Assembly: GCA_045863235.1 (NCBI GenBank)
Contig: BTUM01000096.1
Location: 1-28,287, forward strand
Length of the DNA: 28,287 nucleotides
Direction of reading: 5' to 3'
Source of the DNA: Candidatus Xenobia bacterium
Lineage (GTDB): Bacteria > Vulcanimicrobiota > Xenobia > Xenobiales > QWHO01
In this document: one piece after another, positions 2,265 to 24,773 of the stretch
Layout of the letters: each line of letters opens with the position of its first letter
How positions within the stretch are numbered: position 1 is the first letter of the stretch
Program-made: the position numbers and the translations under genes
The notes under the pieces: generated by a model
Told to the model about the DNA's origin: nothing
The model's input: the letters and a program-made list of their open reading frames with translations, nothing else
Database searches by the model: none

Positions 2265-3893
2265 GTGAAGATTCTCGGTCTCAATTCGGCCTACCACGAG
2301 TCCAGCGCCGCGCTGGTGGTGGATGGCCAGGTGGTGATGGCCATCGAGGAGGAGCGTCTCAGCCGGCGCAAGCACGGCAAGGAGGCTCGGGTGGATAACC
2401 CCGACGAGCTGCCTCTGAAGGCCATCGCCGCCTGTCTGGAGGCGGCCGGGGGCGAGGTGGACCGGGTGGCTTACGCCCTGGAGCCGGGCCGGCGTCGGGT
2501 GGGTGGGGATCCTTACCCGCTCGAGCCGGGCAACTGGGGCACCGAGGCCGGGGAAGCTTTGTTCGAGGCCGCCCTGCATCGGATCCCCGAGCACCTGGGC
2601 CGTCCGGTCGAGTTTCTCTCCCACCATCTGGGCCACGCCGCCAGTGCCTTCTACCCCTCGCCCTTCGAGGAGGCGGCCGTGCTGGTGGTGGATGGTATCG
2701 GGGAGGAGGCCACCACCTGGCTGGGGCGGGGAAACGGGGCCGAGCTGGAGCTGCTGGAGGAGATCCCCTATCCTCACTCGCTGGGCTTCGTGTGGGAGCG
2801 GGTGGCCGTCTACCTGGGCTTCTCGGTCTACGACGCCCCCAAGGTGATGGGCCTGGCGGCTTACGGGCAGGCCGACCGGGCCATGCCGGCGCTGGACAGG
2901 CTGCTCCGGGCCACCGACACCGGCTTTTCCGTCGACGCAAGGCTGGCGAGATTTCGCAGCGGCGACGTGCAGGGGCTGGAGGAGCTGTTCGGGCCCCGTT
3001 ACCAGGCTGGCCAGTCCCACCTCGAGCCGCGTTTTGCCGATCTGGCGGCCGCCTTGCAGAGGCGCACCGAGGAGATCGTGCTGGTCCTGGCCCGTCGCCT
3101 GCACCGCCTGACCGGGTCGCCCAACCTGGCCTACGCCGGCGGGGTAGCCCTGAACTGCGTGGCCAACGCTCGCCTCGAGCGCGAGGGGCCCTTCGAGGCG
3201 CTCTACATCCCGGGAGCGGCCCACGACGCGGGTACCGCGGTGGGGGTGGCCCTGGAGCTTGCCCACCGGCTCGGAGCCGCCCGCCGGATGGGCCCTCTCA
3301 CGCCCTTTCTGGGGCCGGCCTACGAGTGCGAGCAGGGCACGCTCACCTCGGACCCGGCCGGGGAGGCGGCCCGGTGCCTGGCCGAGAGTCAGCTGGTAGG
3401 CTGGTTCCAGGGCCGTCTCGAGCTGGGCCCCCGGGCGCTGGGACATCGCTCGCTGTTGGCTGACCCACGTCAGAAGGACCTGCGAGCGGTGCTCAACGAC
3501 CGCATCAAGCACCGCGAACCCTTTCGCCCTTTCGCAGCGGCCGTGCTGGAAGAGCACGCGAGCGACTGGTTCGACTTGCCCGTGGGGCGCAAGGGGGCGG
3601 TGGCCGCGCGGGATCTGATGCTGCTGGCCTATTCGGTCAGGGATGAGCGCCGTTCCAGCATTCCCGCCGTGGTCCACCACGACGGCAGCTGCCGCATCCA
3701 GACGGTGAGCGCGGGCACCGATCCGCTCTTTCATCGTCTGATCAGCGAGTTCTATCGCCTCACCGGGGTCCCGCTGGTGCTGAACACCTCCTTCAACGAC
3801 TCCGAGCCCATCGTGTGCACCGTGGAGGACGCAGTGCGCACCTACCGCCGCTCGGGCCTGGATGCCCTGTTCGTGGGGGATCGCCGGCTGTGA
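2265..3893 (+). CDS. Carbamoyltransferase, NodU/CmcH/TobZ family
   Basis: Family motifs MKILGLNSAYHESSAAL..EEERLSRRKH, HHLGHAASAFYPSPF, VVDGIGE, KVMGLAAYG, AGGVALNCVAN, ELGPRALGHRSLLADP, IKHREPFRPFA, VHHDGSCRIQTV, LNTSFN. Confidence 0.95.
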   Translation: MKILGLNSAYHESSAALVVDGQVVMAIEEERLSRRKHGKEARVDNPDELPLKAIAACLEAAGGEVDRVAYALEPGRRRVGGDPYPLEPGNWGTEAGEALFEAALHRIPEHLGRPVEFLSHHLGHAASAFYPSPFEEAAVLVVDGIGEEATTWLGRGNGAELELLEEIPYPHSLGFVWERVAVYLGFSVYDAPKVMGLAAYGQADRAMPALDRLLRATDTGFSVDARLARFRSGDVQGLEELFGPRYQAGQSHLEPRFADLAAALQRRTEEIVLVLARRLHRLTGSPNLAYAGGVALNCVANARLEREGPFEALYIPGAAHDAGTAVGVALELAHRLGAARRMGPLTPFLGPAYECEQGTLTSDPAGEAARCLAESQLVGWFQGRLELGPRALGHRSLLADPRQKDLRAVLNDRIKHREPFRPFAAAVLEEHASDWFDLPVGRKGAVAARDLMLLAYSVRDERRSSIPAVVHHDGSCRIQTVSAGTDPLFHRLISEFYRLTGVPLVLNTSFNDSEPIVCTVEDAVRTYRRSGLDALFVGDRRL

Positions 3894-4834
3894 CGGTGGC
3901 GCCCCCCGAAGCGGCCCGCTTTTTGCCCGTGCACGATGCCTACGGCCTGCGCCTGGCCCTGGTATTCGGCAACCACGCTCCCGGCGGTCAATGCCCCTAC
4001 TACAGTGCCGGGCGTTGCCATCACTGCGACATCGGCGCTGGCGAGGGACGCGAGTTCACTCTGAAGGACAACCGGGACCGGCTGGCCTGGTTTCGGCAGC
4101 ACTACGCCGAGGCGCTGCCCCGGGTGGCCCACCTGGTGCTCTACAACTCGGGCTCGACGCTGAATCCCCGTGAGCTGCCGCCGCAGATGCTCGACGAGAT
4201 CCTGGAGTGGGCGGCCAGCCTGCCTTCCCTGAAGGTGGTGTCGCTGGACTCGCGCGAGGCCTTCCTGAGTCAGAAACGGCTGATCGAGTGCGCCCGGCGC
4301 CTGGGACGCACCCTGCGCCCGATCCTGGGCCTGGAAAGCGCCCGTGAGTCGGTGCGCAACCTGGCTCTGGACAAACACATGTCCGACTCGGGCATCCGCC
4401 GCGCCTTCCGGGCCGTGGCCCTGGCCCGGGCCGAAGGGGCCGACTGCCAGCTCGACTGCAACCTGGTGGTGGCCGGTCCCGGCACCACCGGCGACGGGGT
4501 GGCCGACGCCCTGGCCACGGCCGAGTTCGCCTTCGACCTGGCCACCGAGGTGGGGTTGACGGTGGATCTGAACCTGCACCCTTATTACCCCAGCGCCCGT
4601 GGCCGGCTGCGCTTTCCTCAGCACGGGCGCTGCTCGCTGCCGGTGGCCATCCGGGCTGTGGAAGGGATCGCCAACCTGGCCCGGGCCCGCTCGCCCGGCT
4701 CGCACCTGTTCATCGGCTGGCAGGACGAGGGGCACGACCAGGACCAGGGGGTGCGGGCGGTGGAGCTTCAGATCATCCAGGAGCGCTTCGACCGCTTCAA
4801 CCGCACGCAGGATGCGGCGGTTCTGCGGGGATGA
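3890..4834 (+). CDS. Radical SAM protein with atypical CX7CX2C motif, resembling the RaSEA (archaeosine radical SAM) family
   Basis: GTG at 3890 overlaps the upstream stop (GTGA) and is in frame with track ORF 3815..4834. Motifs GQCPYYSAGRCHHC, LYNSGSTLNPRELP, SLDSREAFL and ILGLESA resemble RaSEA-type motifs as I recall them. The subfamily call is less certain than the radical SAM call. Confidence 0.7.
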   Translation: MTVAPPEAARFLPVHDAYGLRLALVFGNHAPGGQCPYYSAGRCHHCDIGAGEGREFTLKDNRDRLAWFRQHYAEALPRVAHLVLYNSGSTLNPRELPPQMLDEILEWAASLPSLKVVSLDSREAFLSQKRLIECARRLGRTLRPILGLESARESVRNLALDKHMSDSGIRRAFRAVALARAEGADCQLDCNLVVAGPGTTGDGVADALATAEFAFDLATEVGLTVDLNLHPYYPSARGRLRFPQHGRCSLPVAIRAVEGIANLARARSPGSHLFIGWQDEGHDQDQGVRAVELQIIQERFDRFNRTQDAAVLRG

Positions 4835-4868
4835 GGCGAGGAGGGCGAGCGAGGTGTTGCCCGGGGTC

Positions 4869-5777
4869 TCAGACGTCTTCCGCTGACTTCTTCTTGGGAA
4901 TGATGGGCGGCGCATAGCCCGCTGGCTGGGGCGGCAGGGGCTTGTGCACGTGCGGCTCGTCCGAAGTGAGGGCGGGAGGTGCCCAGGGGGCGGCCTCGGC
5001 CTCCTCGGGGCCCCGCGTGTGCTTGACGACTGGCTCCTCCTCGAGCGTCTGCCTGACGGCCCTCTCTGGCGAGGCTGGCTCCTTCTCAGGCGTCTGCTTG
5101 ACGGCCCGCTCCATCTCTGAAGCGGCCGACTCAGGCGCAACGATCTTGCGCCCCGTCGAGAACCGGGGGGCCTCCTTGTTGATCAGCGGAGCCACCAGTC
5201 CGGCCAGGCGCTCGAGCTCGTCCTCGGTCTGGTGCTTTTTCTCGCGCCAGGCCTCCAGCCGGGCCTTCACGGACGCCTGCTCGTCTCGGATGCGCGCGGC
5301 CCGGGAGGCGATCTCGCGAGCCTCCGCCTCGAGCAGGGCGGCTTTCTGAGAGGCCGCCTCCAGGTAGGCCTGCACGCCGGAGTCCAGGCTCTCTTCGAAG
5401 AGGTCCAGCGCCCGATCGCGGTTGAATCCGTCCTCCAGCAGCGCTTCCGGGGCCACCTTGTGCTCGGCCAGCACCAGCTCGAGCTTGTCCCCCTCCTTCA
5501 GCTCCCGGCCCAGGCGCGGCAGAGTCCAGCCTTCGGCGGGGAGGCCGGCCAGCTCGTAGATTTCCTCCGGAGTGGTCTCCAGAGCCAGCGTGGCGGCGGC
5601 CGCGCCCGACTCCACGTCGCGGTGGGCTACTTCGCGGGCCTTCTTGAGCGTCTGCAGGGACACCACTCGGGTCTCGTACTTGGGAGCCTCGGGTGGGGGC
5701 GCGCCCGGCTTCTCCGGCGGGTCATCCTTGCCGTCCGACCAGAGTCCCAGTTTCTCCAGCAGATTTCCAAGCTTCAC
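4869..5777 (-). CDS. Hypothetical coiled-coil protein with Pro/Glu-rich tail; last gene of the PspA operon
   Basis: GTG at 5777 overlaps the AAA stop (GTGA), giving MKLGNLLEKLGLWSD.... Long heptad-like helix (AALLEAEAREIASRAARIRDEQASVKARLEAWREKKHQTEDELERL). The track start at 5876 lies inside the AAA gene. Confidence 0.8.
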   Translation of the reverse strand: MKLGNLLEKLGLWSDGKDDPPEKPGAPPPEAPKYETRVVSLQTLKKAREVAHRDVESGAAAATLALETTPEEIYELAGLPAEGWTLPRLGRELKEGDKLELVLAEHKVAPEALLEDGFNRDRALDLFEESLDSGVQAYLEAASQKAALLEAEAREIASRAARIRDEQASVKARLEAWREKKHQTEDELERLAGLVAPLINKEAPRFSTGRKIVAPESAASEMERAVKQTPEKEPASPERAVRQTLEEEPVVKHTRGPEEAEAAPWAPPALTSDEPHVHKPLPPQPAGYAPPIIPKKKSAEDV

Positions 5778-7528
5778 TGGATGTTCAGCTCCAACTTGAG
5801 TTGAGTCAGCCGCCGATCGAGCTCCTCGGGCTGGATGGCCCGGTAGCGCTCGGGCAGGAAGACCGCGTCGGTGCACTCCTTGACGGCGATGAGGTCCATG
5901 TACTCCAGGTTCTTGACGTGGGGCAAAGGCCGGTACTCGGCCACCACCTGGGCCAGCACCTCCTTGAGCGGCTTCTTCTCCGCCCCCTGCAACTCGTGGA
6001 CGCGCATGGCCCGCACGATCACCGTCTCCATCTCGTTTCCTCCCAGGTCCACTCCGGGGGGCAGGGTGGGCAGGTCTTCGCGCGAGAGAGGCAGCTTGAT
6101 CTTGCGGGCCATTGCCTCGAACAGGAGGTTGCGCTCTTCGTCGGTCTGAGGGGGGAAGAGCGGGATGTGCACGTCCAGTCGTCCTGGACGCTTCAAGTCG
6201 ACCTCCAGCAGATCGGGCCGCGAGGTGGCGAAGACCCAGACGATGCGGCCCCGGTTGGCTGTATTGCTCATCTCCTGGGCGAACATGCCGTAGATGCGGC
6301 CGGACAGGCCGTTGTCGGAGTCGCCCGAGGAGCGCTTGCCGGCCATCTGGTCAGCCTCGTCCACGAATACCACCACCTGGCCCAGCGCCTTGAGGACGGT
6401 GAAGATCTTCTCCAGGTTGGCCTCGGTGTTGCCCATCCACTTGTCGCGGAAGTTCTTGAAGACCACGAAGGGCACGCCCACCTCGCCGGCCCAGCAGTGG
6501 GTGAGCCAGGTCTTGCCGGTGCCGATGCGCCCGGTCATCAAGTAGCCCATGGGCACGGCCGTGAACTTGCCCTCGCGCAGCAGCCGCGCATCCTCGCGCA
6601 GCCAGGTCTTGGCACCGTCGCAGCCGGCCACGTGGTCGAGGGTCTGCTTGCTCTCCACGAACTCGAGCAGGCCGGCGCACTCCTTTTCGATCAGCTCCTT
6701 CTTGATGCGCGAGAGGTAGTCGGAGGTGAGCTTCTTATCGTTTTTGACGGCCAGGGCCACCATGTGCTGCAGGCTCACCCGGGTCAGCCCCACGACCTTC
6801 TTGGCCATGGCTTCCAGGGTCACGTCCAGACTGGGCTTGAGCTCGGGATACTGGACCGAAAGGTAATCCAGGAACTCGAGGCAATCCTCTTCTCCCGGCA
6901 AGGGGATCTTGACCTTGTGGTTGTAGGGATTCTCCACCAGCGTGCGGGCCAGCCCGGCCAGGCTCTCGGTGATCAGCACGGTGGCTACCTGGGCCCCCAG
7001 CAGGTTGGGGTCGGCCGCCCAGTCGAGCAGGCGGATCAGCGTCTCGGTGCTGCGGTCGTTGAGCTGACCCCCGGTCTCGGGAGCCATGAACTGCACGTAG
7101 TCCATCACCACCGCGGCCCGCAATGGGTCGCGTTTGGCCTGGCCATCCTCGATGACGGTGCGCTGCAGGCTGTAGCGGAGGAACGTGTCCAGCAGCTCCA
7201 TGGCCTGGCCCTGGTCGCGGGGCAGGCGGCTGGAAGCGTGGCTGGTCTGGTTCCAGTCGTCCATCATCTTGAGGAACTTGAAGAAGGTCTCCTGGCCCTT
7301 CAGGGCTTTCAGACCGGCGCCGCGACTGTAGTAGAGCACGCAGTCGAACTTGCCGAACAGGACCTGAGCCAGGTAGTCCTTGAGGGCGTAGAACTTCAAG
7401 CCGTCGTCGCCCCGGTGGGGCACGAGATCGAAGACGTTGCCGTAGATCAGGAACTGGCTGAGGGTCCCGGCGCGAAAGACCTCGCGCATGCCCTGCACCC
7501 AGGCGGGGTAGGTTTCCGTTTTCAGCAA
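5774..7528 (-). CDS. AAA+ ATPase, classical clade; one intact C-terminal AAA module after a large N-terminal domain
   Basis: Walker A GRIGTGKT, pore loop RDKWMGNTE, Walker B VVFVDEAD, sensor-1 ATSRP, Arg finger LKRPGRLD. TTG start with GAGG just upstream. Confidence 0.93.
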   Translation of the reverse strand: MLKTETYPAWVQGMREVFRAGTLSQFLIYGNVFDLVPHRGDDGLKFYALKDYLAQVLFGKFDCVLYYSRGAGLKALKGQETFFKFLKMMDDWNQTSHASSRLPRDQGQAMELLDTFLRYSLQRTVIEDGQAKRDPLRAAVVMDYVQFMAPETGGQLNDRSTETLIRLLDWAADPNLLGAQVATVLITESLAGLARTLVENPYNHKVKIPLPGEEDCLEFLDYLSVQYPELKPSLDVTLEAMAKKVVGLTRVSLQHMVALAVKNDKKLTSDYLSRIKKELIEKECAGLLEFVESKQTLDHVAGCDGAKTWLREDARLLREGKFTAVPMGYLMTGRIGTGKTWLTHCWAGEVGVPFVVFKNFRDKWMGNTEANLEKIFTVLKALGQVVVFVDEADQMAGKRSSGDSDNGLSGRIYGMFAQEMSNTANRGRIVWVFATSRPDLLEVDLKRPGRLDVHIPLFPPQTDEERNLLFEAMARKIKLPLSREDLPTLPPGVDLGGNEMETVIVRAMRVHELQGAEKKPLKEVLAQVVAEYRPLPHVKNLEYMDLIAVKECTDAVFLPERYRAIQPEELDRRLTQLKLELNIQ

Positions 7529-7535
7529 TTGAGCC

Positions 7536-8390
7536 TCACGAATTGACCTGGAAGGTCGGGGGAGCGGTCTCCAGGTCGTCTTGAATGGGTCCCAGGATCT
7601 CGGCGTTCTGCTTCATCCAGTCGTGGGTCTGGGCAAACGAGCCCATCACGTCGTCCACCCGCTCCACCAGGGCGCCGGCGTCCTTGTTCAAGATGGCCTC
7701 CTGAACCATCAGGGCTACCTGTTGCTCGATGCGCAGCAGCTCGGCCTGGATGAACTGGGCCTGGTTGCCAGCCTGATCGTAGTTCTCCAGGCGCTTGCGC
7801 GCGATCTCCAGGGTGGACTCGAGCGACTTGGCCAGGCGCTCCTTGTTGGGGTCGGCCGCGGCTGCGTCGTACTCGCGCTGGTAGCTTTCGATCTGCTGCT
7901 CGAGCTCGCGCCGGGGGGCGGTCTTCATATGCATCTCGAGCATCTGCGAGGAAACCAGCAGCTTGAGGAAGACCCACAGCAGGCGGTTGACCCCTTCGGC
8001 CACCGAGGCGGCGGTGGGACCCATCCCCTGTCCCATGCGAAAAAGCTGCGAGCAGCTCTTCTCCAGGGCCAGGTAGCGCTGCTGGCGCTCGTGCGTGAGG
8101 CCGCTCAGCATGGCCCGTTTCTTGGCCAGGTGGTCGCCCGACTCCTCAGCCGCGGCGATGGCCTCCATCCACTTACGAAAGCGCGGGTCGTGGCTGACCA
8201 TGAACAGGTAGGCCAGCTCCAGCCCGGCCCCGATGAAGAGAAAGCCTGGATTGACCAGCCCGGCCACCCCCACGCCCAGCACGTACAGCCAGTTGACCGG
8301 GACGTTGCCCAGGCCCTTGATGTTGGGCTTGGCGTTGAAGGCGCCCTTGACATAGTCCCAGAAGGTCAGCGGTTTCTTGCCTTGTGCCAT
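7536..8390 (-). CDS. Hypothetical membrane protein: N-terminal hydrophobic hairpin plus helical/coiled-coil domain
   Basis: Hydrophobic stretch WLYVLGVGVAGLVNPGFLFIGAGLELAYLFMV followed by charged helices. ATG overlaps the ABC ATPase stop (TGATG). Confidence 0.85.
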   Translation of the reverse strand: MAQGKKPLTFWDYVKGAFNAKPNIKGLGNVPVNWLYVLGVGVAGLVNPGFLFIGAGLELAYLFMVSHDPRFRKWMEAIAAAEESGDHLAKKRAMLSGLTHERQQRYLALEKSCSQLFRMGQGMGPTAASVAEGVNRLLWVFLKLLVSSQMLEMHMKTAPRRELEQQIESYQREYDAAAADPNKERLAKSLESTLEIARKRLENYDQAGNQAQFIQAELLRIEQQVALMVQEAILNKDAGALVERVDDVMGSFAQTHDWMKQNAEILGPIQDDLETAPPTFQVNS

Positions 8391-9199
8391 CAGGGATTCA
8401 CTCGTTGAAACTCATGTGTCACCAGCTGCACCGCCTCTTTGAATTCCGAGCGCTCCTGGGCGCTGAGCGGATCGTCCCCACGGCTCGGAGGCAGCGCGTC
8501 GGTGATCTCGACCGCCAGCCGGCCCGGCTGGGTGGCGAAGATCCACACCCGGTCGGCCAGATAGACGGCCTCGGCAATCGAGTGGGTGACCAGGAACACG
8601 GTCGCCTCCACATCGTGCCAGAGCTCTACCAGAAGACGCTGCATCTCGATACGGGTCGGCTCGTCCAGGGCCGAGAACGGCTCGTCCATCAAGATGATTC
8701 GGGGGCGCAGCACCATGCTTCGAGCCAGGGCTACCCGCTGTTGCTGACCGCCGGAAAGCTGGCGCGGATATTTATTCTCATGCCCGCCGAGCCCCACCTT
8801 TTTTATCCAGGCCATCGCCATGTCGGTGCGTTCCTCGGGCTTGCCGCGGTTGCAGGCGTTGAGCCCGAACTTGACGTTGTCGAGCACGGTGAGGTGGGGA
8901 AAGGAGCTGTACTTCTGGAACACCATGCCCCGGTCGGGCCCGGGCCCGGTGACGGGCTTGCCGAACACCAGCACCTGGCCCTCGGTGGGCGGCACGTAGC
9001 CGCGATAGCCGGCGATCAGGTTCAGGATGGTGGATTTGCCGCAGCCCGAGGGACCGAGCATGGAGATGAGCTCGCCCTTGCCTTCCAGGTCGGCCACCTG
9101 GAAGTTGAGGTCGGTGACCGCCAGATACTCGCGGGGCGTGCCGATGTTGAAGATTTGTCGGACGTTCTTGAACTCGACGACGTGGGGGCGCTCGCTCAT
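8390..9199 (-). CDS. ABC transporter ATP-binding protein, NitT/TauT-type
   Basis: Walker A GPSGCGKST, Q-loop VFQ, signature LSGGQQQR, Walker B ILMDEPFSALD, H-loop VTH. Confidence 0.96.
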   Translation of the reverse strand: MSERPHVVEFKNVRQIFNIGTPREYLAVTDLNFQVADLEGKGELISMLGPSGCGKSTILNLIAGYRGYVPPTEGQVLVFGKPVTGPGPDRGMVFQKYSSFPHLTVLDNVKFGLNACNRGKPEERTDMAMAWIKKVGLGGHENKYPRQLSGGQQQRVALARSMVLRPRIILMDEPFSALDEPTRIEMQRLLVELWHDVEATVFLVTHSIAEAVYLADRVWIFATQPGRLAVEITDALPPSRGDDPLSAQERSEFKEAVQLVTHEFQRVNP

Positions 9200-10041
9200 A
9201 GGTAACGATAGGGGAAGAGGAGCTTCCCTACCTGGGCCAGGATGCGGTCGGCCAGGAAGCCCACCACCAGGATGATGAAGGCCGGGATGTACATCAGCAC
9301 CTTGTCGTTTCGGTAAGCGGCGTTGAAGACGTAGCCCAGGCCGCCGGTCTCGGGATCGGCGGCCAGTCCCTCGCCCACCAGAATCCAGGTCCAGGCCACC
9401 CCGAAGCTGAGTCGGATGGCGGTGTAGATGTCCGGCAGGGCGATGGGGAAGAGCACCTTCAAGAGCAGGTTCGGCCCACGCGCTCCCAGCGTCATGGCCG
9501 TGTTGAGGAACATCTCATCCACCTCGTCCACGGCCTTGACGATCAACGGCAGCATGTACACGAAGCAGGCGATGGCCAGGAACAGGACTTTCTGCCAGTC
9601 CCCGCCGAGGGGGGCGAACCAGACGAAGCTCAGGGGCACGATGATGATGAGCGGAAGATAGCCGGCGATGATGTTGAGTGGCTCGAAGAAGGCCCGGATG
9701 GGCCCGTAGGCTCCCATTACCAGCCCCAGAGGCACCACGATGATGGTGGCGATGATGCAGGACTTGATCACCCGCACCAGCGAGATGCCCAGATGCCGCT
9801 GGATGCCGCCCGGAAAGCGAGGGGTGTCCTTGACCAGCATCGGGATGCTCTGTAACACCTCGCCCGGAGAAGGCAGGATGACCGGCGAGACAATGCGCTC
9901 TTCGGCCGCCCCCCGGGTGACGAACCACCAGGCGAACAGCACCAGCAGCACATAGGCCGCCCCCAGGCCCCATGCCAGGAGCCTGGGGGTGGGCCTCCGG
10001 ATCTCAAACAACGTGCTGAGTCCTTCGGCCCGGTTGGCCAT
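9196..10041 (-). CDS. ABC transporter permease, NitT/TauT (SsuC/TauC-like)
   Basis: About 6 hydrophobic segments, ILPSPGEV motif, EAA-loop equivalent NTAMTLGAR...KVLFPIALPDI. Overlaps both neighbours. Confidence 0.93.
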   Translation of the reverse strand: MANRAEGLSTLFEIRRPTPRLLAWGLGAAYVLLVLFAWWFVTRGAAEERIVSPVILPSPGEVLQSIPMLVKDTPRFPGGIQRHLGISLVRVIKSCIIATIIVVPLGLVMGAYGPIRAFFEPLNIIAGYLPLIIIVPLSFVWFAPLGGDWQKVLFLAIACFVYMLPLIVKAVDEVDEMFLNTAMTLGARGPNLLLKVLFPIALPDIYTAIRLSFGVAWTWILVGEGLAADPETGGLGYVFNAAYRNDKVLMYIPAFIILVVGFLADRILAQVGKLLFPYRYL

Positions 10042-11810
10042 CAGGGAGCGGCCTCGATCTGGTAGACCGAGATCTCCACCCGGCGGTTCTTGAAGTGGTT
10101 GTTGGGATCGGCCGGATCAGCCGGGGCGTCCCAGCCCTTGCCCTCGACCACGAACTTGTTGGGGTCGAACTTGTGCTTCTTGACCAGCTCCTCCTTGACC
10201 GCGTTGGCGCGCTCGAGGGAGAGCTGCTTGACCTGGGCCGGATCGACCTGGCCTTTGCGAGAAGCGTCGGTGTGGCCCACGATGGCCACCCGGGCGTTGG
10301 AGAACTGGCCGGCCAGCTTGGCCGCCCGTTCGATGACGGCGTCCACATTGGGGTCGTAGAGCGATCCCTTGATGGCCATGCCGTTTTCGTCGCGGGCCGG
10401 CTCGTGCAGGTTGGCCGAGTTCGGGTAGAACTGGATCTGGATGACGGTCGTGACGATGGGCGACTCGGCCGCGATCTTGCCGTAGGTCGTGGGCACGAAA
10501 GTGGCCACGTTCTCGTTCTTCTGATTCTTGAACTTGCCCTCGGACTGCAGCTTCTTGACGATGCTGAAGTCCATGACCTCGTCGAACTGCACCGTGCCAC
10601 GGATCAGGCCCAGCTCCTTGTAGACGTAGGAGATCGATTTCCAGGTGCGCTCAAAGTTGGTGGGGCTGTTGGCGTTGGTCAGGAAGTCGACGTTCTCGGC
10701 GAAGTTGGTGGTGTGGGCGTCGGCCGACATGCCCATGATGTCCTCGGGCTTCATCGAGTAGCCCTCGGCCATCCAGGTGGCGGCCTGCGAGTAGGTGGCC
10801 GACTTGGGGTCCTTGACCAGCTCCATCCCCTCGAAGATGCCGGCCACCAGGCCGTAGACGATGTCGGGGTGGTCCTTGGCGAAGTCGGCGCGCACGGCGT
10901 AGACGTCGGCGATCAGCTTGTTGGCGTCGGCGGTGGTGGAGAGCAGGCGGTTGCCTTTGCGCTTCTCCACCAGGTTGTAGATGTCGGGAGCCCACGAGAC
11001 GCAGGCGTCGATGCTTTTGTCCGAGTCATAGGCGGCCGAGGCCTCGAAGGCGGTCTGGGTGTAGCGCACCTTGACGTCGCTGGGGCTCAGCCCGGCCGAC
11101 AGCAGCAGGCTGTTGAAGTAGTACTGCGAGGGGCTGTTCTGGGCGTAGACCACGGTCTTGCCCTTCAGGTCCTTCACGCTCTTGATGCTCTCGCGCACCA
11201 CGATGCCGTCGCCACCGCTCGACCAGTCGATCTGCTGGAAGACGCGCGGGGCGGTGCGAGAATCTTTCATCAGCTCGTCGGCGAAGAGCACGATCATGTC
11301 CAGGGTGCCCCACAGCACGTGGAACTTGCCCGAGGCGTAGCCGTCGCGGGCCTGCACCGGGTCGTCCACCAGGGTCAGCTTGACCTTGAAGCCGTACTTC
11401 TTGTAGAAGATGCTCTCTTCGTTGGCTTTGAAGCCGTGGTTGGCGGCCACGATGGGGAGCCAGCCGATCCAGACGTTGATGGGGAACTGGACGACCTTGT
11501 CTTTAGGGTCCCACTGGTAACCGCTGACGCCTTTGACGGCCGGCAGCTTCTCAGCCGCAACGTATTTGTATTCCGACTGGACGGTGACCTGGCCGGGCTG
11601 GCCGGAAGGGTCCTCGCTGCCCGTGCCGCCGCTGCCGCCTCCGGTGGTGTCGCCTCCTCCGGTGGTGCTGGCTGCGGTGGTGCCCCCGCCGGTCGTACCC
11701 GGCTTCGGCTTGCCCATGAACGTGTAGCCCGCGTAAAGGAGCCCGACCACCACCAGCAACACCACGAACTTGCCGGCGCCGGTCAGCCCCGCTGATTGCT
11801 GTCCTGCCAT
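10041..11810 (-). CDS. Membrane-anchored ABC solute-binding protein (NMT1/THI5/SsuA-like) fused to a C-terminal OmpA-like peptidoglycan-binding domain
   Basis: N-terminal TM helix (FVVLLVVVGLLYAGYTFM), Gly/Thr linker, binding-protein motifs (WIGWLP, IDWSSGGDGIVV, IKSVKDLKGKTV, IADVYAVR) and OmpA_C motifs (IVGHTD, LSLERANAVK, NRRVEI). Confidence 0.9.
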   Translation of the reverse strand: MAGQQSAGLTGAGKFVVLLVVVGLLYAGYTFMGKPKPGTTGGGTTAASTTGGGDTTGGGSGGTGSEDPSGQPGQVTVQSEYKYVAAEKLPAVKGVSGYQWDPKDKVVQFPINVWIGWLPIVAANHGFKANEESIFYKKYGFKVKLTLVDDPVQARDGYASGKFHVLWGTLDMIVLFADELMKDSRTAPRVFQQIDWSSGGDGIVVRESIKSVKDLKGKTVVYAQNSPSQYYFNSLLLSAGLSPSDVKVRYTQTAFEASAAYDSDKSIDACVSWAPDIYNLVEKRKGNRLLSTTADANKLIADVYAVRADFAKDHPDIVYGLVAGIFEGMELVKDPKSATYSQAATWMAEGYSMKPEDIMGMSADAHTTNFAENVDFLTNANSPTNFERTWKSISYVYKELGLIRGTVQFDEVMDFSIVKKLQSEGKFKNQKNENVATFVPTTYGKIAAESPIVTTVIQIQFYPNSANLHEPARDENGMAIKGSLYDPNVDAVIERAAKLAGQFSNARVAIVGHTDASRKGQVDPAQVKQLSLERANAVKEELVKKHKFDPNKFVVEGKGWDAPADPADPNNHFKNRRVEISVYQIEAAP

Positions 11811-11875
11811 GACAACCCTCCCTTGATTGGTTGACCCCTCTCGGAGCCGGGTTCTTGAATTGGTATCAAGTCAAG

Positions 11876-11904
11876 GGGCGCTCTCGCTTGAAGCGAGGGC
11901 GCCC
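11876..11904. terminator. GC-rich 13-bp intercistronic hairpin just downstream of pspA; possible partial terminator or mRNA stabiliser
   Basis: GGGCGCTCTCGCT-tga-AGCGAGGGCGCCC (one non-Watson-Crick position), 10 nt past the pspA stop. No strong U-tract on the minus strand. Confidence 0.5.
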
Positions 11905-11914
11905 ATTTCACAGA

Positions 11915-12682
11915 TTATGCCGACTGGGCCGGACCCAGATCGCGCTGGGTCTCTTCGGGTCCCAGCTCGCGCGCCGCCGGCTCGGAGACTGTGGGCAGCG
12001 GGGGAGCTGCCAGGCCCATGCTGGTGGCGAACTCGGCCAGCGCCTGGGCTTCCATGGCCTTCTCTTCCTCGGCCTTCATCACCCAGTCGCCCGACTGCAC
12101 CGAGTCGGCCGCCACGCGAGCCTTGCCAGCCGCGTTGGCGACGCGCTCGTCGAGCTTCTCCTCCAGGCGCTGCAGGGTGGCTCCGCTGCCGGCCATGTCG
12201 AAGGCGGTAGCGCTGGCGATCTCGGCCAGCTTGGCCTGCGACTCGGCGATCTCGGCCTGGGACATCTTGCGCTTGATGTTCTCGATGCGGTTCTGCGCCT
12301 CGCGCACGTAGACGTCGCGCTGCTTGGAGAGGTTCTTGTAGAGGTCGTCAGCCTGCTTGAGCTGGGTCTCATTGTCGGCGATCGACTGCTTGTGCTGCTT
12401 GACCTGCAGGGCCAGCCGTCCGGCCTCTTCCATCTGCTTGGCGTTGAAAAGAGCGGTGGCTTTGGCGGTGGCCCGATCGAGCTCGCGTTTCTCTTTCTCG
12501 ACCGCTGCGCGCAGACGCTCGACCAGAGCCGCCTGCTTGGCCAGATTCTTGTTGTAGGTGGCCACCGCTTCTTGCAGCGAGACCACTTCCGCCTCCAAGA
12601 GAGCTTTCGGGTTGGCCGTCTCGAGCCCGGAGATGAACAGGCTGAGGAATCCCTTGATGAGCTTACCCAAACGTGCGAACAC
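11915..12682 (-). CDS. pspA: PspA/IM30 family protein (bacterial ESCRT-III superfamily)
   Basis: Amphipathic N-terminal helix MFARLGKLIKGFLSLFISGLETANP, long coiled coil, family-like LQRLEEKLDERVANAAGKARVA. AGGAGG RBS 7 nt before the GTG. Confidence 0.88.
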   Translation of the reverse strand: MFARLGKLIKGFLSLFISGLETANPKALLEAEVVSLQEAVATYNKNLAKQAALVERLRAAVEKEKRELDRATAKATALFNAKQMEEAGRLALQVKQHKQSIADNETQLKQADDLYKNLSKQRDVYVREAQNRIENIKRKMSQAEIAESQAKLAEIASATAFDMAGSGATLQRLEEKLDERVANAAGKARVAADSVQSGDWVMKAEEEKAMEAQALAEFATSMGLAAPPLPTVSEPAARELGPEETQRDLGPAQSA

Positions 12683-12950
12683 GACGAAACCTCCTGGAAT
12701 ACGGGACTACGCTTTTTGGCGCGGCCACAAGTTCCCCATTGGGGGGCGATCTCCTTTGCCCCGAGCGGCTGGCAATTGCGGCTCGTGTTTGCACGCATCT
12801 GCAAGGCCCTTGTTTCGACCACGACGGGCCTCGATCGGTCGAGAACGTTATCGCTCCTAGAACCTCTCTGCGCTCGCCGGACCTGGCCGACTGAGCGTCA
12901 TTTCACCTGCCGGCAACACAATCGGGACGGGGCCAGGCTAGGCTGGAGGG

Positions 12951-14210
12951 GTGAAGATCGGAGCCCTCCTGTCCCTGCCCCCGGCTTTCCTGCCTGCGAG
13001 CCCGGCCTGCGACCCGGCCGGACCGGTGGATTCTTGCCAGCTGTCCCGGCCGGTCGGAGCAGATCCCCAGATTCCCGACGCCCGGGCCATCCTGGCCGAC
13101 CCCTCTTTGCGTTACGTGGACCTCAATCGCAGCATCAACCGAAGCTATGCCCAGTTCGGCAGGCTCATGCAAGAGGTGGTGGACCCGCTCTTCGATGGCG
13201 GCAGCTCCCAGGCCAGTCCCAGCTGGTACGGCATGGCGGTCTACGCCTCGCGCATGGCAGGCCGCTCGATGCAGGCGGCCGATCAGGCCCTGAGCGTGGT
13301 CAAGCAGATGGAGGCGGGCAAGAGCTTCGCCTGCGCCGTCGGCTCCCGAGCCGAAGGGGTGGACCTGGAGGGCCTGGGGTTGTGGGGCACGGTCAAGCTG
13401 TGCGCCGCCTTCCTGACGGCGCTCTTCCTGGGGCAGCAGGAGCCGGGCACGCGCGCTTCGGCCTGGTTTGACCCGCGCACCATCACGGTGGCGGCTCACC
13501 GGCTGGCCGGCGTCATCCGAGAGGACTCGGGGCCGGTGGTGGACCGGCTGGCCCGGGTGGCTCAGACCCTCCAGAACGCGCTCGAAGACGGCAACCGCCG
13601 CATTTTCGCCGACATCGGCGTGGCCGGACAGCAGTTCATGGAGGCTCGCCGGGCCAAGGGGGCGGCCCTGACCGAGGGCGAGGTGCTGGCCATGGCGCCC
13701 GAGCCCGAGCAGGCCCGGGCGGTGCTCGAGCAGAGCCGACAGGTGATCGAGCAGGGTGGACCGCTGCCCACCTCGACCAACACCGCCAACATGCTGTGGG
13801 CCGCCTTCGCGCTCTACGAGGAGGCCGGGAAGAGTCCGCCGGGACGACGCGATCCGGCCATCCAGCTGGCCAACGAGTTGATGGCCTATCACGAGCAGTT
13901 TACCGTGGCCGTGCCCGCCTTCGAGCCGCCAGCCCCGATTCCGGGCGAGTTGGACCGCCCGGCCCTGTTCTCGGTGGTGACGCCCTCGGTGTGCGTGCCC
14001 ACCCGCGAGGGGACGTGGCGTTACAGCCGATTTGCCTCCCGCGAGCTGCCGCCGCGCGACTCCAACCCCATGACGCCCCGGGTCACCGAGTACAACTGGG
14101 CTCGCTTCGAAGACCGCTGGCCGGGAATTTTGGACTTCTTCGGCGAGCGCTACCACCGGCCGGAACAGAGCTGGCCCATGCCCCCGGCCGAGCCTTCGGC
14201 GCCTCTTTGA
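12951..14210 (+). CDS. Hypothetical protein, DUF2515-like
   Basis: GGAGG precedes the GTG. Motifs NRSINRSYA, SWYGMAVYASRMAG, LEDGNRRIFADI and AYHEQ resemble DUF2515 blocks as I recall them. The ORF is well supported; the family call is tentative. Confidence 0.65.
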   Translation: MKIGALLSLPPAFLPASPACDPAGPVDSCQLSRPVGADPQIPDARAILADPSLRYVDLNRSINRSYAQFGRLMQEVVDPLFDGGSSQASPSWYGMAVYASRMAGRSMQAADQALSVVKQMEAGKSFACAVGSRAEGVDLEGLGLWGTVKLCAAFLTALFLGQQEPGTRASAWFDPRTITVAAHRLAGVIREDSGPVVDRLARVAQTLQNALEDGNRRIFADIGVAGQQFMEARRAKGAALTEGEVLAMAPEPEQARAVLEQSRQVIEQGGPLPTSTNTANMLWAAFALYEEAGKSPPGRRDPAIQLANELMAYHEQFTVAVPAFEPPAPIPGELDRPALFSVVTPSVCVPTREGTWRYSRFASRELPPRDSNPMTPRVTEYNWARFEDRWPGILDFFGERYHRPEQSWPMPPAEPSAPL

Positions 14211-15578: not shown

Positions 15579-16763
15579 ATGCGCCGCTTCCTGGCTCTGG
15601 CATTGCTCTTCACTCTGGCCGTGGCGGTGGCCGCCCAGGCTCCCACGGCCCTGGTCCTGCTCACCTTGCGGCAGGTGCACCAGGTTATCCTGAGCGATGC
15701 CCTGGAGCCGGTCCAGTCGCCGCAGTTGACCCGGGCCGCCTGGCGGGCGGCTCGCCGTGTCGTGCCCGAGCTGCCTTCCGAGCAGGGCGAGTGGACGGCC
15801 TTCGAGGGAGCCTTCAGCCTGGTTCCCCAGGCCCAGGCGCCGGCCGCGGGCGAAGCGGCCCTGCGGGCCATGGTGGATTCGCTGAAGGATCCCTACTCCA
15901 CCGTGATCACTCCGGCTGAGCGCCAGTTGGAGGAAACCACTCGGCGCGGTGGCAGCTTCTCGGGAGTGGGCGTGGAGTTGGCCTGGCGGGGCGGTCTGGT
16001 GGTGGTGGCCTGCCTGGACGGCTCGCCCGCCCTGGAGGCGGGGGTTCGACCGGGGGATCGCATTCTGGCCGTGGACGGCCAGAAGGTGGACGGGCGCACC
16101 TTCTACACGGCCGGAAACCTGCTGCTGGGAGCTCCTGGCAGCAGGGCTCGCCTTCAACTCGAGCGCCAGGGCCGTCCTCTGGCGATCGAGATCACCCGGC
16201 GCAGCCTGCGGCTGCCTCCCGTGGTGTCACGCAAGCTCTCGGTCGATACCGGCTATGTGCGGGTGGGTTTCTTTGGTCCGGAGACGGTGCGCCAGGTGGG
16301 CCACGAACTGGGCCAGCTGGGCCCCCTGAAGCGCCTGGTGCTGGATCTACGCGGCAATCCGGGGGGCGACTACGATCAGGGGATCAAGCTGGCGGGACTG
16401 TTCGCTCTCGGCCCTCTGCTGCTGGAGGAAGGGCATGGGGGAACCCGCAAGCAGCTCTCTTCGCGCGGCCCGCTGGCCTTCAAGGGCAAGCTGGTGCTGC
16501 TGGTGGACGCCGGCACCGCCAGCGCCGGCGAGCTGGTGGCCCAGAGCCTGCAGGGCCGCACCAACGTGACGGTGGTGGGCACGCGCACCTTCGGCAAGGC
16601 GCGCGTGCAGTCGTTCTACGAGCTGCCCGGCGGAGGCGGCCTGCACCTCACCACTGGACGCTACCTGGGCCTCAATGGTGCCGATCTGCACGGCAAGGGC
16701 CTCCAGCCCGACGTGGCGGTGGGGGCGGGTGAGGACGCGTTGGCACGGGCTCTAAAGATCTAG
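15579..16763 (+). CDS. S41 family carboxy-terminal processing protease (CtpA-like) with PDZ domain
   Basis: Signal peptide, LKDPYS, PDZ FSGVGVEL...GSPALEAGVRPGDRIL, LDLRGNPGG, catalytic Ser in TASAGE and Lys in TFGKARVQ, HGKGLQPDV. Confidence 0.94.
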   Translation: MRRFLALALLFTLAVAVAAQAPTALVLLTLRQVHQVILSDALEPVQSPQLTRAAWRAARRVVPELPSEQGEWTAFEGAFSLVPQAQAPAAGEAALRAMVDSLKDPYSTVITPAERQLEETTRRGGSFSGVGVELAWRGGLVVVACLDGSPALEAGVRPGDRILAVDGQKVDGRTFYTAGNLLLGAPGSRARLQLERQGRPLAIEITRRSLRLPPVVSRKLSVDTGYVRVGFFGPETVRQVGHELGQLGPLKRLVLDLRGNPGGDYDQGIKLAGLFALGPLLLEEGHGGTRKQLSSRGPLAFKGKLVLLVDAGTASAGELVAQSLQGRTNVTVVGTRTFGKARVQSFYELPGGGGLHLTTGRYLGLNGADLHGKGLQPDVAVGAGEDALARALKI

Positions 16764-17718: not shown

Positions 17719-18426
17719 ATGCTGCCCCGGGTAGATGAAGCCAAACTCTCCCGCCAGCTCGAGAAGGTGCCGCTGCTCTCGGTGCTGAGCCCTGAGCAGC
17801 GAGCCCAACTGGCCAGGCGCATGCGCCCCCGTCGACTCAAGCCCGAGCAAGCTATTTTCCTGCAGGGCGACCCGGGCGATTGCATGTATCTGCTGCTCGA
17901 AGGCACCATTCGGGTTGTCAGCGAGACCCCCAGCGGGCGCGAGGTGACTCTGACCTTGCTGGGCGCGGGCTCGTTCTTCGGCGACATGGCCCTGCTCGAC
18001 GGCGAGCCGCGCTCGGCCAGCACCTACGCCATCGAGCCCTGCGAGCTCATGGTCTTGTACAGAGCTGATTTTTTCGATTTTCTGCAGAGTTACCCGCCTG
18101 CCGCGCTCAACCTGCTGGGCTTTCTGAGCCAGCGACTGCGACAGGCCAATGCCCGTATCCAGGACCTGGCCCTGCTCAGTGCCCGGCAGCGCCTGGCAGC
18201 GGTGCTGTGCGACCTTGCTCGGCGCCAGGGAACCGACGTGGGCGACGGCGTGCTGTTGCCCCGGGGCGTTTCCCACCGGGTGTTGGCCGGATTGCTGGGC
18301 ACCACTCGCGAGACCATCAGCCGTATGGCCTCCGAGTTCCGAGCCGAGGGCATGCTCGAGCAGAACGGACGTCAAATCAAGGTGACCAGCCTGGACCGCC
18401 TGCAGCAGGTGGTGGAGGAGTCCTAG
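17719..18426 (+). CDS. Crp/Fnr family transcriptional regulator
   Basis: cNMP-binding barrel (IFLQGDPGDCMYLLLEGTIRV; FFGDMALLDGEPRSAS) and C-terminal HTH (SHRVLAGLLGTTRETISRM). Confidence 0.95.
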   Translation: MLPRVDEAKLSRQLEKVPLLSVLSPEQRAQLARRMRPRRLKPEQAIFLQGDPGDCMYLLLEGTIRVVSETPSGREVTLTLLGAGSFFGDMALLDGEPRSASTYAIEPCELMVLYRADFFDFLQSYPPAALNLLGFLSQRLRQANARIQDLALLSARQRLAAVLCDLARRQGTDVGDGVLLPRGVSHRVLAGLLGTTRETISRMASEFRAEGMLEQNGRQIKVTSLDRLQQVVEES

Positions 18427-18795: not shown

Positions 18796-20157
18796 GTGCT
18801 GCTGGCCCTTACCTTGAGCCGCCCCCCGGCCACCGACCTGGGCTACCTGCTCTCCAAGCACCCCGCCCGCCTGCAGTCCTTCGAGCTGAGCTTCGGGCAG
18901 GCCCACGTCTTCTATCCCGAGGCCACCCCCGAGCGCTGCACGGCCGCGCTGCTGGTCGACATCGAGCCCACTTCTCTGGTGCGCACCAAGCCGGGGGGAT
19001 TTCCCCTGGAGCACTACGTGAACGACCGTCCCTACGTGGCCTCGAGCTTTCTCTCGGTGGCCATGGGGAGCGTCTTCTCCAGCGCCTTCGCGGGTCGCTG
19101 TGGCGGCCATCCGGAGCTGGTCGACCAGACCCTGCCATTCCAGGCCGAGCTGACCTCGGTGCCGGCCCGGGGGGGTGAGAGCCTGCTGCGGCGTCTGTTC
19201 GACCCACTGGGCTACGAGCTCGAGCTGACCCGCCTGCCCCTGGACGAGAGCTTTCCCGAGTGGGGCGACAGCCCGTACTGGCACCTCCGAATCAAAGCTG
19301 AGACCAGGCTGCGCGACCTCCTGGCCCATCTTTACGTTTTGCTACCTGTGCTCGATGATGACAAGCACTACTACGTGGGCTCTGACGAGGTCGAGAAGCT
19401 GCTGCGCCGGGGAGCGGGCTGGCTCAAGGACCATCCCGAGCGCGAGCTGATCGCCTCGCGCTACCTCAAGCACCAGGGGAGCTTGCGGCGAGAGGCGCTG
19501 GCTCGACTGCGCGAGGACCTGGCCGACGAGCAGCCCCCCGCCGAGAAGGTGGAGCGATTGCACGATCTGCGCCTGCAGGAGGTCCTGGCCGTGCTCAAGG
19601 AGAGCGGCGCCAGCTCGGTGCTCGATCTCGGCTGCGGCGAGGGTCGCCTGCTGCAGCTCTTGCTCAAGGAAAAGTCTTTTCAGCGCATCGTGGGGGTCGA
19701 CGTGTCCAGCCTGCTGCTCGAGCGGGCCGCCGAGCGGCTGCGCCTGGAGCGCATGTCCGAGCGCCAGCGCCAGCGGCTGACCCTGCGATTGGGGTCGCTG
19801 GTCTACCGCGACCGCGCCCTGGAGGGTTTCGACGCGGCCGCCGTGGTCGAGGTGGTGGAGCACCTCGAGCCCCACCGCCTGAGCGCTTTCGAACGCTGCG
19901 TATTCGAGTTCGCGCGTCCCGGAACGGTGGTGCTGACCACTCCCAACCGCGACTACAATGTGCTCTGGCCCGCTCTGCCGGCGGGCAAGGTGCGCCACGG
20001 CGACCATCGTTTCGAGTGGAGCCGCTCCGAGTTCTCCGCCTGGGCCAGGGGCGTCGCAGAGCGCCACGGCTACCAGCTGGAGCTGCGGCCGGTGGGAGCC
20101 GAGGATCCGGTGCACGGTGCAGCCACCCAGATGGGGGTGTTTCGGCGTGACCATTAA
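18796..20157 (+). CDS. hen1: 3'-terminal RNA ribose 2'-O-methyltransferase Hen1
   Basis: Bacterial Hen1 N-terminus (PATDLGYLLSKHP, YVNDRPYVASSFLSVA, HLYVLLPVLDDDKHY), SAM motif VLDLGCGEG, EVVEHL, TTPNRDYN, RHGDHRFEW. Confidence 0.96.
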   Translation: MLLALTLSRPPATDLGYLLSKHPARLQSFELSFGQAHVFYPEATPERCTAALLVDIEPTSLVRTKPGGFPLEHYVNDRPYVASSFLSVAMGSVFSSAFAGRCGGHPELVDQTLPFQAELTSVPARGGESLLRRLFDPLGYELELTRLPLDESFPEWGDSPYWHLRIKAETRLRDLLAHLYVLLPVLDDDKHYYVGSDEVEKLLRRGAGWLKDHPERELIASRYLKHQGSLRREALARLREDLADEQPPAEKVERLHDLRLQEVLAVLKESGASSVLDLGCGEGRLLQLLLKEKSFQRIVGVDVSSLLLERAAERLRLERMSERQRQRLTLRLGSLVYRDRALEGFDAAAVVEVVEHLEPHRLSAFERCVFEFARPGTVVLTTPNRDYNVLWPALPAGKVRHGDHRFEWSRSEFSAWARGVAERHGYQLELRPVGAEDPVHGAATQMGVFRRDH

Positions 20158-24554: not shown

Positions 24555-24773
24555 ATGCCTGTCTACGAATACACCTGCCAGGACTGCCAGCGCGACTTCG
24601 AGCTGCTGGTGAAGGGGCCGAGCACCGAGATCGCCTGCCCCCAGTGCCACTCGCACGAACTGAAGAAGCGCATCTCTAGCTTCAACAGCAACACCACCTC
24701 CAGCCAGCCCGAGATGGCTCCCGGCGGCTGCGGCCGCTGCGGCTCGAGCACTCCGGGAATGTGCAACCTCTGA
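24555..24773 (+). CDS. FmdB-family zinc-ribbon protein, 72 aa
   Basis: MPVYEYTCQDCQRDFELLV...CPQCHS..LKKRISSF with a Cys/Gly tail GGCGRCG..C; AAGGA RBS upstream. Confidence 0.9.
   Translation: MPVYEYTCQDCQRDFELLVKGPSTEIACPQCHSHELKKRISSFNSNTTSSQPEMAPGGCGRCGSSTPGMCNL

Follow-up and report, generated by a model that had tools for sequence, protein, structure and literature searches.

The operon described here lies on the minus strand of a 28,287-nucleotide (nt) stretch of DNA from Candidatus Xenobia bacterium (contig BTUM01000096.1 of assembly GCA_045863235.1), referred to below as the window. Its seven genes encode a PspA/IM30-family protein of the ESCRT-III superfamily, a solute-binding protein with an OmpA-like domain, the permease and the ATPase of an ABC transporter, a membrane protein of 284 amino acids (aa), a tandem AAA+ ATPase, and a helical protein of 302 aa. 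Comparison with related loci shows that the stable core is the pair formed by PspA and the tandem ATPase, and that PspA is the hub of the arrangement: the ATPase is almost never found without PspA, the 284-aa protein follows PspA on its own, and the part most readily spared is the transporter. The locus is a further member of a published operon class, and the operon itself is not a discovery; the features that go beyond the available text and supplement of that earlier report (Ravi et al., 2024; PMC11237479) are a motif in the PspA tail and the pattern of gene loss.

Linkage and loss of the operon genes

All seven genes can be found in identical order in five relatives (L012, L014, L016, L017, and L018). 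Among metagenome loci, the best 80 of 547 were considered, 17 of which extend for 5 kb or more upstream and 3 kb or more downstream and constitute a long-context set. In this set, PspA is present in all 17 loci. Fourteen have the 284-aa protein, 14 the binding protein, eight the permease, eight the ABC ATPase, and seven the 302-aa protein; all seven genes are found together in four. PspA adjoins the tandem ATPase in 17/17 loci, and in three of them these two genes stand alone; the permease and the ABC ATPase are missing from nine, and in six of these nine the binding protein is retained. The metagenome loci often differ in gene order, and some of them are close kin. Considering the shared order in the five relatives and the position of PspA beside the ATPase throughout the long-context set, the linkage of these genes is beyond chance.

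Within the phylum, a survey of 151 genomes detected the tandem ATPase in 25 and this clade of PspA in 23, all inside the 25; the remaining two harbor a divergent pspA beside the ATPase gene, and with these queries 126 genomes have neither protein. Of the 151 genomes, 16 have the 284-aa protein, one of them by a weak partial match. Among 41 closer genomes, 19 have the ATPase, 18 have PspA (the exception being a genome 65% complete), and nine have the binding protein. In the family f2, both PspA and the ATPase are present in nine of 16 genomes and both are absent from seven; the two genes form an adjacent pair in three genomes and are kept but unlinked in six. The binding protein was found in none of the 16 f2 genomes, and the search for the 284-aa protein in 13 of them gave one weak partial match. 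Natural versions of the operon with two genes only, pspA and the ATPase gene, are represented by G015, G027, and G033. Where the ATPase locus shows no pspA, the gene is carried elsewhere in the genome (5/5). The original prediction, made from the window alone, had depicted a self-contained seven-gene unit and proposed a neighborhood search for all seven families; the adjacency of PspA and ATPase emerged from that search, but an obligate unit of seven did not, given the scarcity of the permease, the ABC ATPase, and the seventh gene and the loci reduced to PspA and ATPase. What can be retained is a conserved PspA-centered module with a dedicated AAA+ ATPase, as indicated by the co-occurrence in the phylum and by catalytic residues that are invariant in 95 ATPase homologs (see below).

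In a second phylum, Acidobacteriota (121 genomes), a PspA recognized by Pfam is present in 24 of the 27 genomes with the ATPase vs. 14 of the 94 others. Regarding the three ATPase genomes lacking a Pfam PspA, one has a pspA within the ATPase cluster, one has a PspA-like gene, and one has neither within 18 kb. The association can also be incomplete on the other side, since in four genomes (G235, G271, G223, and G195; loci L172-L175) pspA is paired with the gene of the 284-aa protein and the ATPase of this family is absent, only FtsH-sized core matches being detected (E about 1e-18). These pairs, which make good natural controls, imply that the ATPase and the 284-aa protein track PspA independently. 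They also bear out the earlier proposal that a membrane coiled-coil protein is part of the PspA module: a helical protein with a membrane hairpin accompanies PspA even when the ATPase is missing.

Several other architectures were observed. Three Abditibacterium loci (L028, L030, and L035) display the order ABC genes, 284-aa homolog, pspA, and ATPase, and in three other genomes of the Abditibacterium group the ATPase lies apart from pspA, which persists elsewhere. In the genus g4 (L041, G007:C3:77678-78400, and matches in G023, G031, and G035), the operon is lost and the ATPase is kept alone; four of six genomes of this genus have two pspA copies, and in G007 the tail of the second copy is altered and lacks the G-P motif. 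A distant version with nine genes (L183:46-10371, in G224) encodes two OmpA-fused proteins, a vWA protein, a membrane helical protein, a PspA-like protein, a further binding protein, a permease, an ABC ATPase, and an AAA ATPase.

Components of the module

The C-terminal module of the tandem ATPase exhibits, without exception in the 95 homologs, a Walker A motif (residues 333-340), the Walker B residues D390 and E391, a pore-loop tryptophan (W364), and two arginines (R447 and R450). A Walker A motif can be found somewhere in the protein in 95/95 homologs but in 0/95 within the first 280 residues. The structure model (pLDDT 91) has an AAA-type module at its N-terminus, the fold beginning at about residue 7, and C-terminal helices after the active module. 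It aligns across both modules with Rix7, NVL, VAT, Pex1/6, and p97, the best full-length match being Rix7 (7swl; Z 22.4, rmsd 5.8, 459 residues), and in sequence it comes closest to Cdc48 and VAT; identity to the double-ring ATPases of this kind is just 15-20%. The NCBIfam scores for CDC48 (TIGR01243; 82 bits vs. a cut-off of 803) and for CdvC (44 bits) are both far below cut-off. Vps4 (6ap1) aligns with the second module only (Z 20.9, rmsd 3.1, 263 residues), on a par with FtsH, Msp1, and spastin. No match to the MIT domain (PF04212) was found in the genome, and the same model does score in a Sulfolobus control. On sequence and modeled structure, the enzyme is thus best described as a Cdc48-like double-ring protein-threading motor with a predicted dead first ring and an active second one, which may act as a functional analog of Vps4 without being its ortholog. 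Its designation as a classical AAA+ ATPase in the original prediction is appropriate for the active module; the parallel drawn there with Vps4 does not extend to identity, as the protein has two modules and no MIT domain.

With archaeal and eukaryotic ESCRT-III and Vps4 (CdvB/CdvC), the window system has in common an ESCRT-III-superfamily protein encoded with a classical AAA+ translocase and a motif conserved in the C-terminal tail of the presumed polymer-forming protein. The intact Walker motifs, arginine fingers, and aromatic pore loop of Vps4/CdvC are also shared, whereas a single AAA module preceded by MIT is replaced here by two modules. The tandem arrangement is shared with Cdc48/p97, VAT, Rix7/NVL, and Pex1/Pex6; unlike Cdc48/p97, which combines an N domain with two nucleotide-binding modules, the window ATPase lacks an N-terminal substrate or cofactor domain and a Walker A in its first module.

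The window PspA (PF04012, 47.9 bits vs. a cut-off of 33.9) is the sole PspA above the Pfam cut-off in its genome, which is 97.6% complete and in which no match to PspB or PspC was found. Families of the PspF and LiaRS types are absent from the 28 window open reading frames scanned with Pfam and were not sought genome-wide; the earlier statement that pspB/C/F and liaRS are missing from the window therefore holds. In the enterobacterial PspFABC system, a PspA effector also has an AAA+ partner, but PspB and PspC act as sensors there, and the window ATPase is a classical-clade translocase, not a transcription activator of the NtrC type.

In this clade, the last PspA helix is followed by a variable Pro/Ala-rich linker and then by the motif [RK]-x-[LIM]-G-P, two copies of which are present in the window protein (Table 1). 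The strict motif was detected in the last 35 residues of 75/100 aligned PspA homologs (shuffled sequences: mean 0.31, maximum 2) and, among the 46 complete PspAs that come from loci or genomes with a link to the ATPase, in 44. In the control phylum Acidobacteriota, where 30 of 41 PspA matches were taken, one of them incomplete, it is absent from all 13 PspAs whose genomes do not encode the ATPase. Genomes with only the pspA-ATPase pair retain the motif, and its partner should hence be neither the transporter nor the 284-aa protein. A relaxed pattern without the final proline was dropped as a discriminator, since ordinary PspAs are matched as well, where their last helix ends. Recruitment through C-terminal tails has precedents in Vps4 and in cpHsc70, the latter acting on VIPP1, according to the available parts of two articles (PMC7619361, PMC12798727). 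These observations are suggestive of a candidate ATPase-recruiting motif, although one confounded by kinship.

Among the associated proteins, the binding protein combines an NMT1 domain (PF09084, residues 135-336), whose nearest solved proteins are SsuA (3uif) and TauA (6ssy), with an OmpA domain (PF00691, residues 489-574), for which the nearest is Omp38 (3td3). The presence of this OmpA-like peptidoglycan-binding domain agrees with the earlier view of a peptidoglycan-tethered, presumably wall-bound binding protein. A hydrophobic segment spans residues 6-34, with no lipoprotein cysteine, and the protein would join the inner membrane and the wall if this N-terminal helix is not cleaved. In distant loci, it is 59-64% identical over about 560 residues vs. 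34-49% for PspA, which argues for a fixed ligand or partner; it appears from these alignments to be the most conserved member of the operon, or among the most conserved. The permease displays five hydrophobic segments and its best NCBIfam matches are SaoP and TauC, both below cut-off, as are the taurine and nitrate ABC models matched by the ABC ATPase.

The 284-aa protein, encoded between the two ATPase genes, is predicted to be helical and membrane-anchored; in its model (pLDDT 92), residues 32-66 form a hydrophobic hairpin, and a long hairpin is part of a helical bundle. The family comprises 895 clusters at 50% identity (E<=0.001). No Snf7 Pfam domain was found among 142 of its members; two fold searches gave generic helical matches only (Z<=9), with no ESCRT-III chain among the matches listed; the best match to solved sequences (E 0.002) was the coiled coil of an unrelated pneumococcal surface protein A; and comparison of the family profile with the PspA alignment gave a probability of 3%. 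A divergent Snf7 fold is still compatible with these negative results. By language-model features, the nearest named family in the Atlas is Rv2743c/PspM (0.87, 186/256 features), a label that covers 40% of the Atlas cluster concerned. A resemblance to the PspM anchor can be taken as a lead. The mycobacterial ClgR-PspA-PspM (Rv2743c) system likewise contains PspA and a membrane protein of similar size, and pairs of pspA with the 284-aa gene do exist without the ATPase; the window operon differs in having no regulator and in the added ATPase and ABC genes, and any homology between the 284-aa protein and PspM is tentative.

The 302-aa protein consists of a conserved helical core of about 200 aa and a genus-specific Pro-rich tail (alignment of 24 sequences). 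It shares no Pfam family, and searches of PHROGs and the Atlas gave no usable match. Homologs are encoded immediately after the ATPase in the seven long-context loci mentioned above, and the same holds for 17 of the 49 loci that extend 1.5 kb or more downstream; as the core follows the ATPase in distant loci, the protein can be considered a true accessory member.

Possible mechanism and rival explanations

The scheme towards which the evidence leans, if only slightly, is one in which the 284-aa protein anchors polymers of PspA on the inner membrane and the tandem ATPase, acting on the PspA tail, recycles them; optional inputs would come from the wall-tethered binding protein and the ABC transporter. 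PspA would polymerize on the stressed inner membrane as is known of other ESCRT-III-family proteins. The 284-aa hairpin protein would then anchor or nucleate it, in the way that PspM, according to the accessible part of one report, keeps a PspA species at the membrane in mycobacteria (10.64898/2026.09.09.750162). The dead first module of the ATPase, evident from its anatomy, may serve as a scaffold or receptor in place of the MIT domain of Vps4 and capture the tail motif, and the active second module would thread PspA through its aromatic pore loop, thereby remodeling or recycling the polymer. Less firmly, the binding protein, held by its N-terminal membrane helix and its OmpA domain, might together with the transporter tie this machine to the wall; the transporter input would be a small solute, probably anionic or pyrimidine-like, and the 302-aa protein could be an optional adaptor.

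A bolder version can be put forward tentatively, being in our judgment rather doubtful. According to it, PspA and the tandem ATPase would be a minimal two-protein bacterial counterpart of ESCRT-III and Vps4, independently derived from a Cdc48-like motor, the dead module replacing MIT and reading a dedicated tail motif on PspA. The 284-aa protein would be of the PspM type or a second ESCRT-III subunit, and the binding protein, spanning from the inner membrane to the wall, would report the state of the envelope rather than feed the transporter.

A number of observations weigh against the recycling scheme. The distant ATPase of G172, located near beta-propeller and TPR genes, has no pspA within 18 kb, and PspA does not require the ATPase, since 13 of the 38 PspA genomes in Acidobacteriota lack it, among them the four in which pspA is paired with the 284-aa gene. 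Co-occurrence is also explicable by joint transfer of the operon, and kin are not independent. The tail motif may be a mere clade marker: in ATPase-positive genomes of the control phylum, only five of 16 complete PspAs have the strict form, the others being near variants or other PspA types. The profile of the PspA clade matched nothing at E<=0.001 among solved structures, and the polymer behavior is for this reason assumed from the family. Cyanobacterial PspA is described, in the available part of one article, as having weak ATPase activity of its own (PMC11746142). As for the 284-aa protein, the Atlas similarity of 0.87 is below the Atlas bar of 0.9, and the Rv2743c model (PF25587) did not match the 284-aa gene in five genomes, although it was also below cut-off in 14/14 controls, including Corynebacterium. 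The G172 gene itself (locus L182:6669-11748) is flanked by a TPR gene and by one for a PQQ-type beta-propeller protein.

Among the rival explanations, the one that we take most seriously, while still thinking it unlikely, is that the ATPase is a partner of PspA and not its disassemblase. PspA would regulate or adapt the motor, whose real substrates would be damaged membrane proteins or the 284-aa protein. PspA-ATPase co-occurrence fits such a regulated extractor equally well; Cdc48/p97, VAT, Rix7, and Pex1/6, which the ATPase resembles, are extractors of diverse clients; and enterobacterial PspA is reported, in the available part of a review, to bind and inhibit the AAA+ protein PspF (PMC7619361). 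However, both the tail motif and an intact motor persist in the pair-only genomes, in which neither the 284-aa protein nor the transporter was found, so that any other substrate would have to be unlinked. It is improbable that the locus is primarily a solute-uptake module, in which the wall-tethered binding protein and the ABC transporter import a specific small molecule at a membrane site that PspA, the 284-aa protein, and the ATPase build or maintain. The locus does contain a complete TauABC/SsuABC-like set, its binding protein is far better conserved in distant loci than PspA, and a link with solute transport has been suggested (Ravi et al., 2024), but the losses of permease and ABC ATPase from the long-context loci, many with retention of the binding protein, and the family f2, which keeps PspA and ATPase with no transporter found, speak against this reading.

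An anti-phage or contact-defense system, where PspA would seal or break the membrane and the ATPase would sense infection, is very improbable. The patchy distribution in the phylum would be in keeping with it, as would weak PADLOC matches of the ATPase to IetA (E 2e-11, AAA core alone) and a PHROG family of unassigned function that matches ATPase residues 108-478 (E 5e-31). Nevertheless, the operon is flanked by genes of a housekeeping-like kind (for a carbamoyltransferase, an S41 peptidase, RNA repair, and a Tex-like protein), its GC content resembles that of the remainder of the window, and collections of 72,556 plasmids and 50,697 phages contained no match at the thresholds used, viral contigs giving just AAA-core matches of 25-33%.

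The original prediction knew of no experimental characterization of such an arrangement. This stands, in so far as no experimental study of the operon or the ATPase was found in the literature searched, a coverage that excludes most subscription journals, but the type had been described from genomes. In its available parts, the mSystems article of Ravi et al. (2024; PMC11237479) presents a genome-based six-gene operon that matches genes 1-6 in order and in domain make-up (PspA, PBPB+OmpA, permease, ABC ATPase, TM-Snf7, and tandem AAA), including the inactive N-terminal and active C-terminal AAA modules. The assignment of the window locus to this class is based on that order and make-up, not on sequence comparison with OGG56892.1 and AEY64320.1. 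ATP-dependent membrane remodeling, likened to Snf7/Vps4 and linked to solute transport, was proposed there; a PspA-ATPase dyad and extra coiled-coil genes were mentioned, and no experiment was reported. Two differences can be noted: the window copy has in addition a seventh, conserved helical gene after the ATPase, and the protein at the 284-aa position is labeled 'SIG+TM+Snf7', a Snf7 label unconfirmed in the window protein. The operon goes unmentioned in the available parts of Popp et al. (PMC9239133), Makarova et al. (PMC11188069), and a 2026 review (PMC13051332).

A 2025 review, as far as its text was available, states that, as regards ESCRT-III dynamics, a Vps4-like ATPase 'appears absent in bacteria' (PMC7619361). 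If the tandem ATPase does recycle PspA polymers, this gap would be closed by a convergent, Cdc48-derived motor. The two-gene genomes define the minimal pair and the tail motif provides a five-residue target, with which a bacterial ATPase for ESCRT-III turnover becomes testable using two proteins and one motif.

Operon layout and neighboring genes

The seven genes (Table 1) follow each other with gaps of +104, -1, -4, -1, +7, and -4 nt, in agreement with the co-orientation and tight junctions first described for them. Their GC3 ranges from 0.85 to 0.92, and purine-rich stretches resembling Shine-Dalgarno sequences can be found 5' of pspA and of the binding-protein gene. Five of the seven proteins have Pfam families above cut-off (PspA_IM30; NMT1 and OmpA; BPD_transp_1; ABC_tran; AAA), and the scan assigned none to the 284-aa and 302-aa proteins. 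No site resembling a sigma-70 promoter or a minus-strand terminator was seen in window positions 3500-13200. Near-identical contigs from RNA runs (4/24 listed runs) overlap parts of operon genes, one of them spanning the 104-nt gap at pspA; these are contigs from libraries that may include DNA, and two runs also span every flanking bin.

Table 1. Features of the operon and neighboring genes, in window coordinates.
Feature	Position	Strand	Description
pspA	11915-12682	-	255 aa; PspA/IM30 family (ESCRT-III superfamily), PF04012; Pro/Ala-rich C-terminal tail
Two [RK]-x-[LIM]-G-P copies in PspA	11930-11971	-	Residues 238-242 and 247-251; candidate ATPase-recruiting motif
Binding-protein gene	10041-11810	-	589 aa; N-terminal hydrophobic helix, Gly/Thr linker, NMT1/SsuA-type solute-binding domain, OmpA-like domain
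ABC importer permease	9196-10041	-	281 aa; TauC/SsuC/NtrB-like; PF00528
ABC ATPase	8390-9199	-	269 aa; TauB/NtrCD-like; PF00005
284-aa membrane protein gene	7536-8390	-	Hydrophobic helical hairpin and helical bundle
Tandem AAA+ ATPase	5774-7528	-	584 aa; degenerate N-terminal and active C-terminal AAA module
302-aa helical/coiled-coil protein gene	4869-5777	-	Accessory member of the module
Carbamoyltransferase gene	2265-3893		Precedes the radical-SAM-like gene
Radical-SAM-like gene	3815-4834	+	Converges on the operon end; C-x7-C-x2-C
PDZ and S41 peptidase gene	15579-16763	+	Assigned by Pfam
Regulator gene	17719-18426	+	Presumably Crp/Fnr-like
RNA-repair-like gene pair	18796-22606	+	Adjacent genes resembling Hen1 methyltransferase and Pnkp kinase/phosphatase/ligase
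Tex-like gene	24761-26812	+	Presumably a Tex-like protein

The radical-SAM-like gene was weighed as an eighth operon member and excluded: as it comes after the carbamoyltransferase gene, it is probably part of that unit. Its match to TIGR01210 (RaSEA-like; E 7e-11) is far below cut-off. Relatives with 25-28% identity are located just upstream of pspA in L042, L044, and L104, and the gene is beside the operon in five of the six genomes with a match, which may be a coincidence. In the RNA-repair-like pair, the first gene is one that we take to encode Hen1 from its translation, and the second has PHROG matches.

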